In this document: piece after piece, positions 10,848 to 44,610 of the stretch
How positions within the stretch are numbered: position 1 is the first letter of the stretch
How the letters are laid out: each line of letters starts with the position of its first letter
NCBI GenBank assembly: GCA_041288095.1
Contig: JBGGMJ010000126.1
Span: forward strand, 1 to 59,260
Direction of reading: 5' to 3'
DNA from: Myxococcota bacterium
GTDB taxonomy: Bacteria; Myxococcota; XYA12-FULL-58-9; JALHOP01
Length of the DNA: 59,260 bases
Position numbers and translations under genes: made by a program
Notes under the pieces: generated by a model
What the model saw: only the letters and a program-made list of their open reading frames with translations
Databases searched by the model: none
What the model was told of the DNA's origin: nothing

Positions 10848-11426
10848 CTAGCGGATGGGGCAGTAGTGCCGTCCGTGGCGGTTCACCGCACCGCTGGTGA
10901 AGAACGCTTCGAAGGCGCTGCAGGGGCGGTAGCCGCGGATCGGGTCACGGCGCCACGGTGAGTACCAGGGGCGGTGATAAACCGGCGGGCCAACGACGAC
11001 GGGCGGGCCGTAGACTGGTGGGCCGTAGATCGGCGGGCCGATCACGACCGGCGGCGCGACCACGACTGGCGGGCCGACGATCACCGGCGGATAGACCGGC
11101 GCGGGATAGACGGGATAGCCGGGCGGGGTGACGACGACGCCACCGGAGACGCCGTTGGGGCCGATGCTGATGGCGCCCGAGAAGTCGCGGGTGTTGCGAT
11201 CCTGCTGCGGGCCAAGGCGCGAGCCAGGACGCGGCGCGCTCGGAGCCTGACGGACGTCGGCTTGTGCAAGCTGGACGCGCGCGGCGCCACGCTCGGCTGG
11301 GGTGATGGGGCTCGCAAGGGCGCTCGACAGCGCGCCGCGACCAGGAAGTTGGCCGGCGCCGGGTACCGTGCCGGCGGCTTGAGACAGACGGGTGCCTTCG
11401 ATCTGCTGTGCAGCGTTCGTGCTCAT
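10848..11426 (-). CDS. Hypothetical Pro/Val-rich repeat protein
   Basis: ATG after GAGG; tandem PP[VI][VIY]xG-type repeats; no signal peptide. Confidence 0.65.
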   Translation of the reverse strand: MSTNAAQQIEGTRLSQAAGTVPGAGQLPGRGALSSALASPITPAERGAARVQLAQADVRQAPSAPRPGSRLGPQQDRNTRDFSGAISIGPNGVSGGVVVTPPGYPVYPAPVYPPVIVGPPVVVAPPVVIGPPIYGPPVYGPPVVVGPPVYHRPWYSPWRRDPIRGYRPCSAFEAFFTSGAVNRHGRHYCPIR

Positions 11427-11466
11427 GTTTGCCCTCGCGCACGGCGCTCCCGTCCGTGCCTGTCGT

Positions 11467-11493
11467 GTATCGACTCGGCGGGGCGGGGGTTGC
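11467..11493 (-). promoter_or_regulatory. sigma28-like motif GCAA-N15-GTCGATAC
   Basis: Recurrent motif 40 nt upstream of the 11426 start. Confidence 0.55.
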
Positions 11494-11634
11494 GCGAGAC
11501 AAACGTGAATTGCGCAGACTTGACGGCACGTTAGCGATCAAGTCCGTTTTAACGTAGGGGGGGCGAAAGCGCACCCTTGGTGTTAACGCAGTTATCGGAT
11601 GGGCAGGGCGTGGGGTGTGTCGAAGTGAGGGATC

Positions 11635-11812
11635 GCGGGGCTTTCGCTCCGGGCACGCCGCAGCCCGATTTGGGGTACACGCCCCATTCTGCGCAGGCCG
11701 TTGCCTGGCGATGACTCGCCGAACGAAACCCGATCCGCACGTCGCGAACCGGGATGCCGGTGGCGCCGTCGTACCCCAAATCGGACTGCGTCGTGTCCTC
11801 ACTACGCCCCGC
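11635..11812 (-). repeat. Structured element copy A (left arm of long inverted repeat; candidate ncRNA or REPIN/MITE-like unit)
   Basis: Its reverse complement is ~85% identical to 11904..12082 by manual alignment. It folds on itself: GCGGGGC/GCCCCGC ends and a CCGATTTGGGGTAC/GTACCCCAAATCGG stem. Confidence 0.85.
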
Positions 11813-11903
11813 TATGCGCTCACTTGCGGGGCTCGGCTTACCCGTCGTCTCTTTCCCTCTCACTCAAAAAGGCGGGGCGGTTTCTTGGGGAATCAGGCGG
11901 ATA

Positions 11904-12082
11904 GTAGGGCGTAGTGAGGACGTGCCGTGGTCCGATCCGGGGTACGACGGCGCCACCGGCATCCCGGTTCGCGGCGTGCGGACAGGTTTTCGCGCGGGCG
12001 AGTCATCGCCGGGCAACGGCATGCGCAGAAAGGGGCGTGTACCCCGGATCGGGCCGCGGCGCGCCCGGAGCGAGAGCCCTAC
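11904..12082 (+). repeat. Structured element copy B (right arm of long inverted repeat; candidate ncRNA or REPIN/MITE-like unit)
   Basis: GTAGGGC...GCCCTAC ends, CCGATCCGGGGTAC/GTACCCCGGATCGG stem, and internal hairpins ACCGG-catc-CCGGT and GGCGA-gtca-TCGCC. Confidence 0.85.
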
Positions 12083-12178
12083 GGTCGCCCCTTGTCGCGA
12101 ACCCCGCCCCGATCTGGACACTGGCCAATCTCTTCCATCGGCGTTAGCTTATTTGCCTTCGCTCAAAAGGAGCTTGCC

Positions 12179-13354
12179 GTGGCTTTCCCCCTGAATGCAG
12201 TCATCGCCAGCGCTGTCCGCACACCCATCGGCCGGGCCATCAAAGGCACGTTGCGGGATACGAGGCCGGATGATCTCGCGGCCGTCGCCATTGATGCGGC
12301 TATTGCTCGGGTCAAGGGGCTCAAGAAGGAGGATGTCGATGATGTCATCCTCGGCTGCGCGATGCCGGAAGGGGCGCAGGGCATGAACATCGCCCGCAAC
12401 GCCGCGCTTCTCGCCGGCCTCCCCGACACCGTCAGTGGCGAGACCATCAATCGGTTCTGCTCGAGCGGACTGCAGGCGGTCGCGCACGCGGCGCAGGCCG
12501 TGCACACGGGCATGCAGCCTGTGGTCATCGCCGGTGGCGTCGAATCGATGTCGATGGTGCCGATGCAGACGGCGCGGCTCTCGCTCAATCCGGAGCTCGT
12601 GAACCAACACCCCGAGATTTACATCTCGATGGGTAACACGGCGGAGAACGTCGCCAAGCGCTTCGATGTGTCGCGTGACGCCCAGGACCAGTTCGCCTTG
12701 CGCTCGCATCAGAAGGCCGTCGCCGCCATCAAGGCCGGCAGGTTCAAGGAGGAGATCGTCGCGGTGAAGGCCCGCCGGCTCGAAGGCAAAGACGTCACCG
12801 AGCTCATGTTCGACACCGATGAGTGTCCGCGCGGCGACACCACCATCGACGCCTTGCAGAAGCTCAAGCCCGCCTTCGCGGCCAAGGACGGTACGGTCAC
12901 CGCGGGGAATAGCTCGCCGCTCAATGACGGCGCCGCGGCGCTGGTGTTGCTGTCCGAGGCGAAGGCCAAGGAGCTGGGCATCACGGCGTTCGGTCGCATG
13001 CGCGCTTTCGCGGTCGCGGGCGTCGCGCCGGACATCATGGGCATCGGCCCCGTCCCGGCCATCCAGAAGCTGCTCAAGTCGGTCGGTTTGTCGGTGAATG
13101 ACATCGACCTCTTCGAGATCAACGAGGCGTTCGCGTCGCAGGCGATTTACTGCCAGCGCGAGCTCAAGATCCCGGACGAGAAGCTCAACGTGAACGGCGG
13201 CGGTATCGCTATTGGGCACCCGTTGGGCTGCACCGGCGCCCGCTTGACCACGACGCTGCTGCACGAGCTGCACAAGCGCAAGGGCAAGCTCGGTATCGTT
13301 TCGATGTGCGTCGGCGGCGGTATGGGTGCCGCCGGGCTCTTCGAGATCGCCTAG
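12179..13354 (+). CDS. fadA: Acetyl-CoA C-acyltransferase (3-ketoacyl-CoA thiolase)
   Basis: Motifs [45 protein letters not shown] and [12 protein letters not shown] start at 12179 after AAGGAG. Confidence 0.93.
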
Positions 13355-43135: not shown

Positions 43136-44610
43136 GCCGGTGCGAACAGCTCGGGGATGGTCGCGCTGATCTCGCCCAAAGGCCCGGTATGGCCGGCGGC
43201 GCGCATCGCGCTCAACGTGACGCTCGCTGGGTGGCGTCCGTTGCCGCGGACGTGTTGTCCCGGGCGGAGACCGCCGGCGCGGCCCGCGATCAGCGCCGCC
43301 ATGTTCTCGGTCGAGTGCGAGCTATTCAACGCCGACCCCGGCGCCTCGCTCGCATCGACGCCGTAACCACCTTCGTGGTGCATCACGAGCACGGTGTTCT
43401 CCAGCATGCTCTGCGCGCCCTCGCGCGTGTCGCGAATCTTGGCGACGAGGTACGCGAAGTGCTTGTTGTGCCAAGCGATGGCGTCGGCCATTTCGCGGGT
43501 CGTGCCCTTGCCGTGCCCGATCTCGTGCAGATCGGACTGGACGCCGATGAGCGGATAGAAGTTCATCCACGAGTGGAAATGCGTGAACATGAGCGACACC
43601 GAGCGCGTCAGGTCACAGGCGAGCGCCACGTGGACGAGGTCGCAGAACAAGCGGGCGCGCAGCTCTTCGTTCGAATAGCCGCTGTTGGTCGTGTAGTCAC
43701 CCGATGGGCGCTCACCGCCGATCGGCGGGTCGTTCGCGTACGCCGGGGGCTGGACGCAGACCGCCGTCTGTTCGGGAGGTAACGCCGCGATGCCGCGCTC
43801 GAGCGCGTAGATCTCCTCGAGGTGGCTCTGCAGCCGTTGCTGATCATCGCGCCCCAAGCGCTGCATGAGCCGTTGTGCGTTACCGCGGACGAGGTCGACG
43901 ACGCTCCGCCTTCCCGCGTTGCGGTAGTCGCGGAGCTCGGCGTCGCCGTCGGTCGTCGGACGGAAGCTGCGGAACAAGGTATCGTAAGCTTGCTTCGGGC
44001 TGATGACGGGATCGACACGGGTCGCCAGGGTGCCGCCCGGGGCAAGGCGATACGAGACGGCGCCGCGGTTCGGGTCCGAGCTGATGTAGGACGACACCTG
44101 GACGCGGTAGACGAGCGACTTGAACTGGGTCGCTGAAGCGGACATGTCGGCCATGACCTGGTCCGCGGTAGTGCCGTAGACCCGCGCCTGAAACTCGCTC
44201 GGCGCGGTGCGCACACCGGCGAGCATCGGGCTCATCATGGTTTCGTGATGGTTGTTGGGACGGCCGCCCGACGGCACGGTACCGCCGTTTTCACCAGCCC
44301 AAGGGATCTTCAGGCCGGTCACCACGGAGATCTCGTTCTTGATGTTGTCGTGGCTCGCGAAGGGCGCCAAGGCGCGCTTCAAGTCGTAGTTGGCGCCAAC
44401 GGTGCTCGGCACGTAGGTCTCGCTGATGGGCACGCTGCCCGAGCCCAGCGAGCAGCCCGCGGTGCACACCACGAAGCGCTTCGGCATCGGCGATGCCGTC
44501 TGCGCCAGGGCCTCGCCGTTCGCATCGAGCATCGCTTCGAGAACCGGCAAGCCGACGACGGCGCCACCGACACCGGCCAAAAAGGCACGACGACCCAATC
44601 GGATGCTCAT
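43132..44610 (-). CDS. DUF1552 domain protein (Tat signal)
   Basis: RRAFLAGVG....LP.LEAM, TTADQ, RRSVVD.V, D..RL..HL..I..LE and ALACDLTR. Confidence 0.88.
   Translation of the reverse strand: MSIRLGRRAFLAGVGGAVVGLPVLEAMLDANGEALAQTASPMPKRFVVCTAGCSLGSGSVPISETYVPSTVGANYDLKRALAPFASHDNIKNEISVVTGLKIPWAGENGGTVPSGGRPNNHHETMMSPMLAGVRTAPSEFQARVYGTTADQVMADMSASATQFKSLVYRVQVSSYISSDPNRGAVSYRLAPGGTLATRVDPVISPKQAYDTLFRSFRPTTDGDAELRDYRNAGRRSVVDLVRGNAQRLMQRLGRDDQQRLQSHLEEIYALERGIAALPPEQTAVCVQPPAYANDPPIGGERPSGDYTTNSGYSNEELRARLFCDLVHVALACDLTRSVSLMFTHFHSWMNFYPLIGVQSDLHEIGHGKGTTREMADAIAWHNKHFAYLVAKIRDTREGAQSMLENTVLVMHHEGGYGVDASEAPGSALNSSHSTENMAALIAGRAGGLRPGQHVRGNGRHPASVTLSAMRAAGHTGPLGEISATIPELFAPA

Follow-up and report, generated by a model that had tools for sequence, protein, structure and literature searches.

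The locus examined here raises the question of what a pair of large, structured, inverted copies is doing between two fatty-acid genes, and whether it is selected as RNA, as single-stranded DNA or not at all. The window, i.e., the whole stretch of 59,260 nt that was analysed, comes from a Myxococcota assembly of 212 contigs and 90% completeness (hereafter G000), and was compared with the three other genomes of the genus (G001-G003). On the right side of the pair lies a thiolase gene assigned by Pfam (12179-13354, plus strand), while the left neighbour is a proline/valine-rich ORF without a Pfam family match (10848-11426, minus strand), with a FadB-like gene further left. An earlier note on this DNA had described two head-to-head copies of about 85% identity, some 90 bp apart and each located 5' of a gene. 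Our analysis supports this description, as the two copies, designated A and B, share 85-87% identity, their cores are 85 nt apart and both point to their neighbouring gene. The coordinates of the features are collected below.

Features of the intergenic region that carries copies A and B (positions in the window)
Feature	Position	Strand	Remarks
Copy A (read as arm subtype I)	11631..11815	-	Closing stem, two invariant internal loops, ~40-bp rod, branched head
Copy B (read as arm subtype II)	11901..12086	+	Orthologous to the only copy of G002, a sister genome
Spacer between the 5' ends of A and B	11816..11900	.	85 nt
5' internal-loop motif GTAGTGA	B 11911..11917; A equivalent 11799-11805	B +; A -	Invariant in 5/5 full copies
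3' internal-loop motif GGAGCGA	B 12067..12073; A equivalent 11644-11650	B +; A -	Invariant in 5/5 full copies
Final 11 nt of copy A, GCCCCGCGATC on A's strand	11631..11641	-	Sole part of A left at the G002 site (alignments A4, A7)
Block between B and the thiolase start codon, outside the element	12106..12178	+	Conserved in 4/4 genus genomes (alignment A7)

A repeat search resolved the inverted repeat into two blocks, 11719-11819/11897-11997 (101 nt, 84%) and 11631-11720/11997-12086 (90 nt, 88%), and detected a 28-nt arm pair within each copy (11651-11678/11771-11798 in A, 89%; 11918-11945/12039-12066 in B, 86%). BLAST against the own assembly matched A (11638-11815, minus strand) to B at 87% identity, and the trimmed alignment gave 158 identical positions out of 186 (84.9%). 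The covariance model R1, built from the five full copies of the genus, scored A at 208.4 bits on the minus strand vs 43.2 bits on the plus strand, and B at 196.5 bits on the plus strand vs 26.3 bits on the minus strand. The outermost ~11 nt of the spacer on each side still belong to the repeat unit (..GAGCGCATAG on A's strand and ..AATCAGGCGGATAG on B's strand; alignments A1 and A2). In agreement with these limits, contigs of run X4 show homology up to 11821-11823 and again from 11891, and in short beach-sand contigs the homology to copy B extends across 11891-12093. The A-B arrangement is not an assembly artefact: across the left flank, A, the spacer and the first part of B, the window agrees without any difference with contigs of two DNA runs that possibly represent the source material, one of 597 nt from run X1 (11337-11933) and one of 157 nt from run X2 (11755-11911).

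In silico folding supports the earlier proposal that each copy folds independently into a rod with a branched head. The predicted fold of copy B reached -119.5 kcal/mol (z -6.1) and that of copy A -108.9 kcal/mol (z -5.6), with 0 of 200 shuffles as stable in either case. The unit measures ~185-200 nt. A 7-bp stem closes it and is followed by two asymmetric internal loops that are invariant (GUA/GARA and GA/GGA), a rod of ~40-45 bp, and a head whose first ~40 nt are conserved and whose distal ~45 nt are variable. The five full copies (A, B, one from G002 and two from G001; alignment A5) represent about 3-4 independent lineages, on which the covariation rests; RNAalifold assigned to them 53 consensus pairs with 97.3% of the cells paired. 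Eight of these pairs are changed on both sides, a number equalled by one of 500 shuffles, and sliding the partners by 1-3 columns left 0-1 such pairs. Every compensatory change that had been listed from the two copies of the window was recovered in this alignment, namely those of the closing stem (pairs 5-181 and 6-180), the replacement of GATCC/GGATC by GATTT/AAATC (pairs 37-147 and 38-146), two changes from G-C to A-U (pairs 22-162 and 29-155) and two from U-G to C-G (pairs 23-161 and 28-156). The claim of invariant motifs was upheld in part: the internal loops GTAGTGA and GGAGCGA are identical in the five full copies, and GGAGCGA persists even in the 3' remnants of G001, whereas the head hairpins are invariant between A and B only, since the sister genomes have GGCAA in place of GGCGA, and one of them has ACCGA in place of ACCGG. 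By eye, the internal loops did not fit the consensus rules of K-turn or loop-E motifs.

The base pairs also indicate to which strand the fold belongs. Seven pair positions hold G-U or U-G combinations, four of which recur in every full copy, and the seven non-standard cells are G-A, A-G, U-C, C-C or G-G and never A-C; if mismatches were strand-neutral, finding all seven on one strand would have a two-sided P of 0.016 (sign test). With RNA parameters the sense strand is more stable by 11-19 kcal/mol in copy B (-116.6 vs -97.8 kcal/mol for the antisense strand), copy A (-108.9 vs -96.8) and the G002 copy (-101.3 vs -90.2), while the two G001 copies, located on contigs C7 (-91.9 vs -91.6) and C9 (-90.8 vs -95.7), have no sense advantage. 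With DNA parameters the sense strand is the more stable one in all five. The predicted single-stranded fold is strand-specific, and the fold data are compatible with RNA or single-stranded DNA alike.

Copy B is syntenic with L003:636-818 in G002, and the comparison of arms and surroundings in this orthologous pair is the most telling piece of evidence. Within the arms 90 of 93 positions are identical (96.8%), compared with 84.7% in the left and 84.5% in the right flank; relative to the flanks the probability of three or fewer arm differences is about 1e-4, for a rod/head split that was chosen after the alignment had been seen. Of the three differences, two form one compensated pair and the third is a bulge. 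This contrast, together with the compensation, shows that the arms are held in place by selection on both sequence and pairing, and that they are under purifying selection at the orthologous site. The proposal that selection acts on a single-stranded fold is thus supported by three observations: pairs that covary, G-U pairs confined to one strand, and an arm conservation far above that of the flanks. The ~45-bp duplex is conserved in sequence too, beyond the need of a plain stabiliser hairpin, an observation that counts against the reading that we favour below.

Arms and heads give a mosaic picture. The arms of A are 88% identical to those of the G001 copies and 82% identical to those of B, and we read this as two arm subtypes, with A and the G001 copies in subtype I and B and the G002 copy in subtype II. 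In the heads, the identity between A and B (88.2%) is above that between B and its own G002 ortholog (73/93, 78.5%), a pattern that we read as gene conversion of the head between the neighbouring copies in G000.

Concerning known families, a search of the whole window against Rfam 15 at the gathering threshold gave 0 matches, and in the interval 11400-12300 at E<=10 there were six sub-threshold matches to eukaryotic miRNA, lncRNA and snoRNA families, the best at 29.2 of the 77 bits needed. The suspicion that the element belongs to no known RNA family thus found no credible match against it in Rfam. In addition, literature searches on ISKra4 MITEs and on bacterial MITEs with compensatory RNA structure returned no description of it. 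By BLAST, covariance model and exact motifs, G000 contains two copies, A and B. One full copy was detected in G002, two full copies and fragments in G001, and none in G003 (84% complete). These numbers are far below those of the bcr1, ERIC and Correia repeats, which also counts against the favoured reading.

Beyond the genus, the covariance model recognized the element in 3 of 22 genomes of the order, the same 22 being the whole class as sampled, and in 3 of 151 sampled genomes of the phylum. BLAST of 61 genomes produced matches with E<=0.01 in 16; those outside G000-G002 were 20-72 nt long with E-values of 2e-4 to 8e-3 and were treated as noise. An exact two-part pattern was found in four stretches among the genomes of 185,579 species. 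Three of them belong to two MAG records (a Myxococcota MAG, with two contigs, and an uncultured Bdellovibrionales MAG), and the fourth, from Nonomuraea, is unsupported by the covariance model. The sole match of the loop signature outside the genus among 401 phylum genomes (G310) is at chance level, as a reversed control pattern matched 13 genomes, and a weak covariance model match of 26 bits on contig C10 of G001 was dropped as it is without the loop motifs. Two pattern scans of metagenome contigs gave 0 matches, and phage and plasmid records contained no match to the element. Contigs of 74-157 nt from a beach-sand run, on the other hand, carry A-like and B-like rods of about 92-98% identity with different or much diverged flanks, so that the family has more members in nature than genome collections reveal. 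Rods of 92-98% identity are present in beach-sand and soil data sets, and one short contig has six changes in the 5' arm, the pairing partners of which fall immediately beyond its end. We conclude that the element is a real structured repeat, previously uncatalogued and restricted to the genus, where it is present in three of four genomes.

The intergenic site itself was followed across the genus. Two genomes, G001 (contig C13) and G003 (contig C51), retain the flanks on either side and contain neither A nor B there; the place is filled by about 100 nt of unrelated sequence in G001 and about 50 nt in G003. These empty sites show that the element comes and goes between genomes. That the G001 filler is a decayed rod was rejected, since its score was reached by 89 of 300 shuffles, and the filler has no counterpart elsewhere in the four genomes. 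In G002, B is present, while A and most of the spacer are replaced by GATCGCGGGGC, which is exactly the last 11 nt of A. As the 7-nt half of the closing stem is unlikely to be there by chance, copy A was most probably lost by deletion in G002, and in that case the A-B pair would be older than the split between G000 and G002.

The same comparison bears on the idea that the copies are dedicated 5' leaders of the flanking genes, which had been offered as one possibility and does not hold: both copies are missing from the G001 and G003 sites, A is missing from G002, and a conserved block separates B from the thiolase start. This block of ~70 nt probably comprises the ribosome site of the thiolase gene and its promoter or operator, the promoter role being deduced from its conservation in all four genomes, which places the putative thiolase control region downstream of B. 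A riboswitch was rejected likewise, as presence of the element upstream of orthologous genes is not conserved. No sigma-70-like promoter was found in 11300-12300, spacer included; the sole terminator-like site in that interval lies inside the head of A, and no terminator was found after A or after B. Upstream sequence is common between contexts for ~11-17 nt only. A small ORF running through the rod was also rejected, as the copies do not share a reading frame and 1-nt indels in the head interrupt the frames.

Carriage by an IS-derived MITE, which is absent from the earlier note, was observed in sister genome G001. Both full rods of that genome are enclosed in 427-nt units, which share 97% identity and occupy unrelated contexts, adjoining TPR and PilZ genes; a Pfam scan around the copies (34 stop-to-stop frames of at least 120 aa) detected TPR, PilZ and M13 peptidase domains. 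The units end in imperfect terminal inverted repeats (TIRs) of ~21 bp (GGGCGCRCGTTCAAGTTGGG and its imperfect complement) and are flanked by a 9-bp target duplication, which matches at 9/9 positions in one copy (CCTCACGCT on both sides) and at 7/9 in two others. Parts of the unit were matched at 12 places in G001, and half or more of the copies there are deleted derivatives, among them one unit without most of the rod, one without the 3' half of the rod, 3'-only pieces and small fragments, one of which is 13 nt from a tRNA-Gly gene.

The origin of the carrier is suggested by one G001 unit that has the same ends and another interior. It contains a 136-codon frame beginning with 16 codons that are also present in the rod-bearing units, and the frame matches the N-terminus of ISKra4-family transposases (NF033572, E 3.8e-7, 29.6 bits, a fragment below the 205-bit cut-off). 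Of the transposase gene, the rod-bearing units thus retain these 16 initial codons and, at the other end, the final ~65 nt. A full autonomous ISKra4-like copy was not found in G000-G003; ISKra4-like matches occur in 25 of 401 phylum genomes, where full relatives have 470-482 codons. Another genus of the phylum (G238) holds a 1,596-nt IS in four copies, with homologous TIRs and flanking duplications of 7-9 bp. The ORF of this IS ends 14 nt from the right end and leaves no room for a rod, which indicates that the rod is not native to the IS. Judged by sequence comparison, what replaces the transposase gene in G001 is foreign: a non-coding insert of ~330 nt, made up of the rod together with about 95 nt on its upstream and 25 nt on its downstream side. 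With TIRs, a target duplication, no transposase, several copies and a related IS, the carrier unit is a MITE. No trace of the MITE ends or TIRs was found in G000, nor around the rod in G002, and the rod thus also exists independently of its MITE carrier. At the rod itself, inspection by eye of A, B, the G002 copy and the interior of the G001 units revealed no convincing direct repeats that would indicate a target duplication.

A search for partner genes and targets was also performed. Y1_Tnp genes are present at six places in three of the four genomes, the same three that hold rods; G002 has four of these genes and one rod. The covariance model gave matches of 7-13 bits only over the six loci, and no rod lies near any of them. 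The earlier suggestion of a REPIN mobilised by a RAYT transposase is therefore not supported, given two copies in the genome, none beside the six Y1_Tnp loci, and terminal GTAG/CTAC that is not conserved. These ends are present in copy B as had been noted, but absent from A (GCGGGGC/GCCCCGC) and from the G001 copies (GCGCGGC/GACGCGC); the GTAG that is invariant in all five full copies is internal. The TROVE/Ro domain (PF05731) was found in none of the four genomes, while control genomes gave the expected matches; the TnpB zinc-ribbon domain (PF07282) was likewise found in 0/4, and the IS110 domain (PF02371) in one of the four, on contig C22 of G001, away from the rod loci. Pfam scans of seven window ORFs and 34 neighbouring frames of at least 120 aa detected no reverse transcriptase. 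No mobilising enzyme for the rod itself was found among the candidates considered, and the search for a trans target in G000 by complementarity returned matches of 14-19 nt only, with E-values of 0.2-3, i.e., at chance level.

The account that we prefer, although we would put it at somewhat below an even chance, is that A and B belong to a low-copy structured palindromic repeat family of the bcr1/ERIC kind, whose single-stranded hairpin is selected, putatively within read-through RNA, and which can also travel as transposon cargo. A compensated hairpin with a non-conserved distribution (different loci, empty sites) is the mark of bcr1- and ERIC-type repeats and was found here. The unit, putatively devoid of a promoter and a terminator of its own, would be transcribed by read-through: in the window the RNA would run towards the adjacent gene, and in the MITE it would start at the transposase promoter. 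Together with its two loops, the long sequence-specific duplex could then constitute an element for protein binding, processing or stability at the RNA level. New copies may be generated when the unit hitch-hikes on a transposon or is duplicated locally in inverted orientation, with gene conversion as a later step. A stronger version, which we consider unlikely, is that the rod represents a new class of host-retained, protein-binding structured RNA or single-stranded DNA module with the duplex and loops as its recognition surface, spread between loci, and perhaps species, as MITE cargo. It is also doubtful that A and B are two divergent genes for a free-standing regulatory or protein-binding RNA of ~185 nt, again of a new class, with promoters in the 85-nt spacer. 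The strand-specific fold, the invariant loops, the purifying selection on the arms, the 5' ends facing a common spacer, the contigs from another habitat (run X4) that appear to retain an A-like and a B-like copy, and the lack of an Rfam match would all suit such genes. However, the spacer has no sigma-70-like promoter and neither copy is followed by a terminator, the spacer is largely missing in G002 and nothing comparable lies upstream of the G001 copies, the element is absent from G003 and from the syntenic site of G001, at least half of the copies in G001 are deletion derivatives, and complementary targets do not exceed 16-19 nt, all at chance E-values.

If the hairpin acts as single-stranded DNA, the copies could be non-autonomous mobile elements recognized, through the rod and its loops, by a structure-specific enzyme, either an HUH/Y1 transposase or another recombinase missing from the assemblies, with A and B as two insertions at a hot spot, a scenario to which we give a rather low probability. 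Presence and absence at the syntenic site, arm subtypes common to genomes at different loci (A resembles the G001 arms more than those of B), the greater stability of the sense strand with DNA parameters in 5/5 copies, the invariant GTAG in the loop, the occurrence of Y1_Tnp genes in the same three genomes as the rods, and conserved arms around a variable centre, which is the usual pattern of transposon ends, are in its favour. On the other hand, no rod lies near the six Y1_Tnp loci, G002 combines four such genes with one rod, G000 has two copies only and no target duplication was found for the rod. Moreover, an immobile ortholog should decay neutrally, yet the arms are 96.8% identical as against ~84.6% in the flanks, and the 11-nt remnant speaks for a deletion of A in G002 and against a new insertion in G000. 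Long palindromes are also known to undergo hairpin-templated correction. The copies might be functionless quasi-palindromes whose arms are kept complementary by hairpin-templated repair or template switching and by gene conversion, without selection; this we regard as very improbable. The similarity of the A and B heads, which exceeds that between B and its ortholog and points to conversion within G000, and the many one-armed deletion derivatives in G001, as expected of unstable palindromes, fit such a process. Templated correction would, however, be expected to remove the asymmetric loops as well as the four fixed G-U pairs, whereas loops and pairs alike are invariant in 5/5 copies, and it would not explain an arm conservation between species well above that of the flanks.

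While a few well-studied bacteria commonly contain small structured repeats, Myxococcota and uncultured lineages have yielded almost no descriptions of them. The present one shows a rare combination of strand-specific covariation, purifying selection on an orthologous copy, whose arms have diverged about five times less than the coding DNA next to them, and capture as the sole cargo of a transposon-derived MITE. If active as RNA, it would provide an example of a non-coding RNA element moved by an insertion-sequence derivative, and if it were indeed a protein-binding module spread by MITEs, it would be a mobile ncRNA gene and not junk. If active as DNA, it would point to a structure-specific mobilisation system that has so far escaped notice. 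In both cases the family is tiny and genus-restricted, and for the time being its practical importance is modest.

Among known systems, the ERIC/IRU repeats of enterobacteria and the Correia/NEMIS repeats of Neisseria are intergenic imperfect-hairpin repeats of the same kind as bcr1, and roles in processing, stability or protein binding at the RNA level have been proposed for bcr1, ERIC and Correia repeats. The bcr1 repeat of the Bacillus cereus group is described as ~155 bp long and transcribed, with compensatory changes and a non-conserved distribution (PMC3184786). The element of the window resembles these repeats in being intergenic and non-coding, in its size class (130-190 nt) and in a long imperfect hairpin that is kept by compensatory changes and patchy among close relatives. 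It differs from bcr1, ERIC and Correia repeats in having no sequence relationship to them, in its 1-2 intact copies per genome instead of tens to hundreds, in the rod showing no convincing flanking direct repeats by eye and in arms that are conserved in sequence at an orthologous site.

Several RNAs associated with mobile DNA, i.e., TnpB/IscB omega RNA, IS110 bridge RNA, retron msr-msd and bacterial Y RNA, share with the element a size of 150-250 nt, a long terminal stem and a branched distal part; unlike them, the rod has no adjoining partner gene and no Rfam match. A bacterial Y RNA was rejected on the absence of PF05731, a TnpB omega RNA on that of PF07282, an IS110 bridge RNA on the single PF02371 gene not being at a rod locus, and a retron on the lack of a reverse transcriptase among the scanned ORFs near the copies. 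REP/REPIN doublets are likewise GC-rich palindromic units with GTAG at the stem base and Y1 transposase genes in the genomes, but the stem of the element is ten times longer, its head is branched, there are two copies and not hundreds, no RAYT gene is adjacent and the terminal GTAG/CTAC occurs in copy B only; a REP/REPIN-RAYT system was rejected on copy number, RAYT adjacency and termini alike. Finally, the G001 carrier is similar to ISKra4-derived MITEs and mobile insertion cassettes in its ~21-bp TIRs, 9-bp duplication, retained transposase-gene ends and several copies, and what sets the element apart from ISKra4-derived MITEs is that the rod is a foreign insert there, and that in the window and in G002 it stands without any trace of TIRs.

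It seems that the A-B site, which is occupied in our genome (G000) by a pair of structured hairpin repeats (rods) and is flanked by two conserved control regions, tolerates or attracts insertions. The filler found there in the sister genome G001 (see table) is unique among the four genomes of the genus. On the side of copy A, the proline/valine-rich ORF is without a Pfam family match and contains a tandem repeat of three 18-bp units (11032-11097). The sister genomes keep both this ORF and its upstream region. The palindrome falls within a block that all four members of the genus conserve, and it looks like an operator for a regulator of the surrounding fatty-acid genes.

Features at and beside the A-B site and a rod-head fragment elsewhere in G001
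Feature	Location	Strand	Remarks
Proline/valine-rich ORF	window 10848-11426	minus	PPVVVGPP-type repeats in the encoded protein
Short palindrome, CTTGAC..12 nt..ATCAAG	window ~11519-11545		upstream of the minus-strand ORF
GC-rich filler with hairpin, ~100 nt	L066:735-858 (G001, contig C13)		exact position of the A-B pair of G000
Rod-head fragment, 55 nt	L059:1501-1554 (G001, contig C9)		84% identity

Partial matches to the rod were also found. Only 13 nt lie between the rod-head fragment of G001 and a tRNA-Gly(CCC) gene, and the surroundings of the fragment contain no recognisable rod arms. In the window, positions 44555-44574 match the G001 rod head exactly over 20 nt (ACGACGGCGCCACCGACACC); given that comparable matches of 14-15 nt are dispersed across the genome, the 20-nt match probably reflects a GC-rich word that is common in coding sequence. 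Moreover, a soil contig of the DNA sequencing run X1 matches the 3' arm of copy B (window 12024-12072) and continues into ~255 nt of unrelated sequence, and it could represent a further copy that has different surroundings or belongs to a different organism of that sample.

Finally, G238, a genome from another genus of the phylum, was found to carry four copies (loci L085-L088; 95-100% identical) of a 1,596-nt ISKra4-family insertion sequence, with a 475-codon frame, terminal inverted repeats of ~22 bp and target duplications of 7-9 bp.
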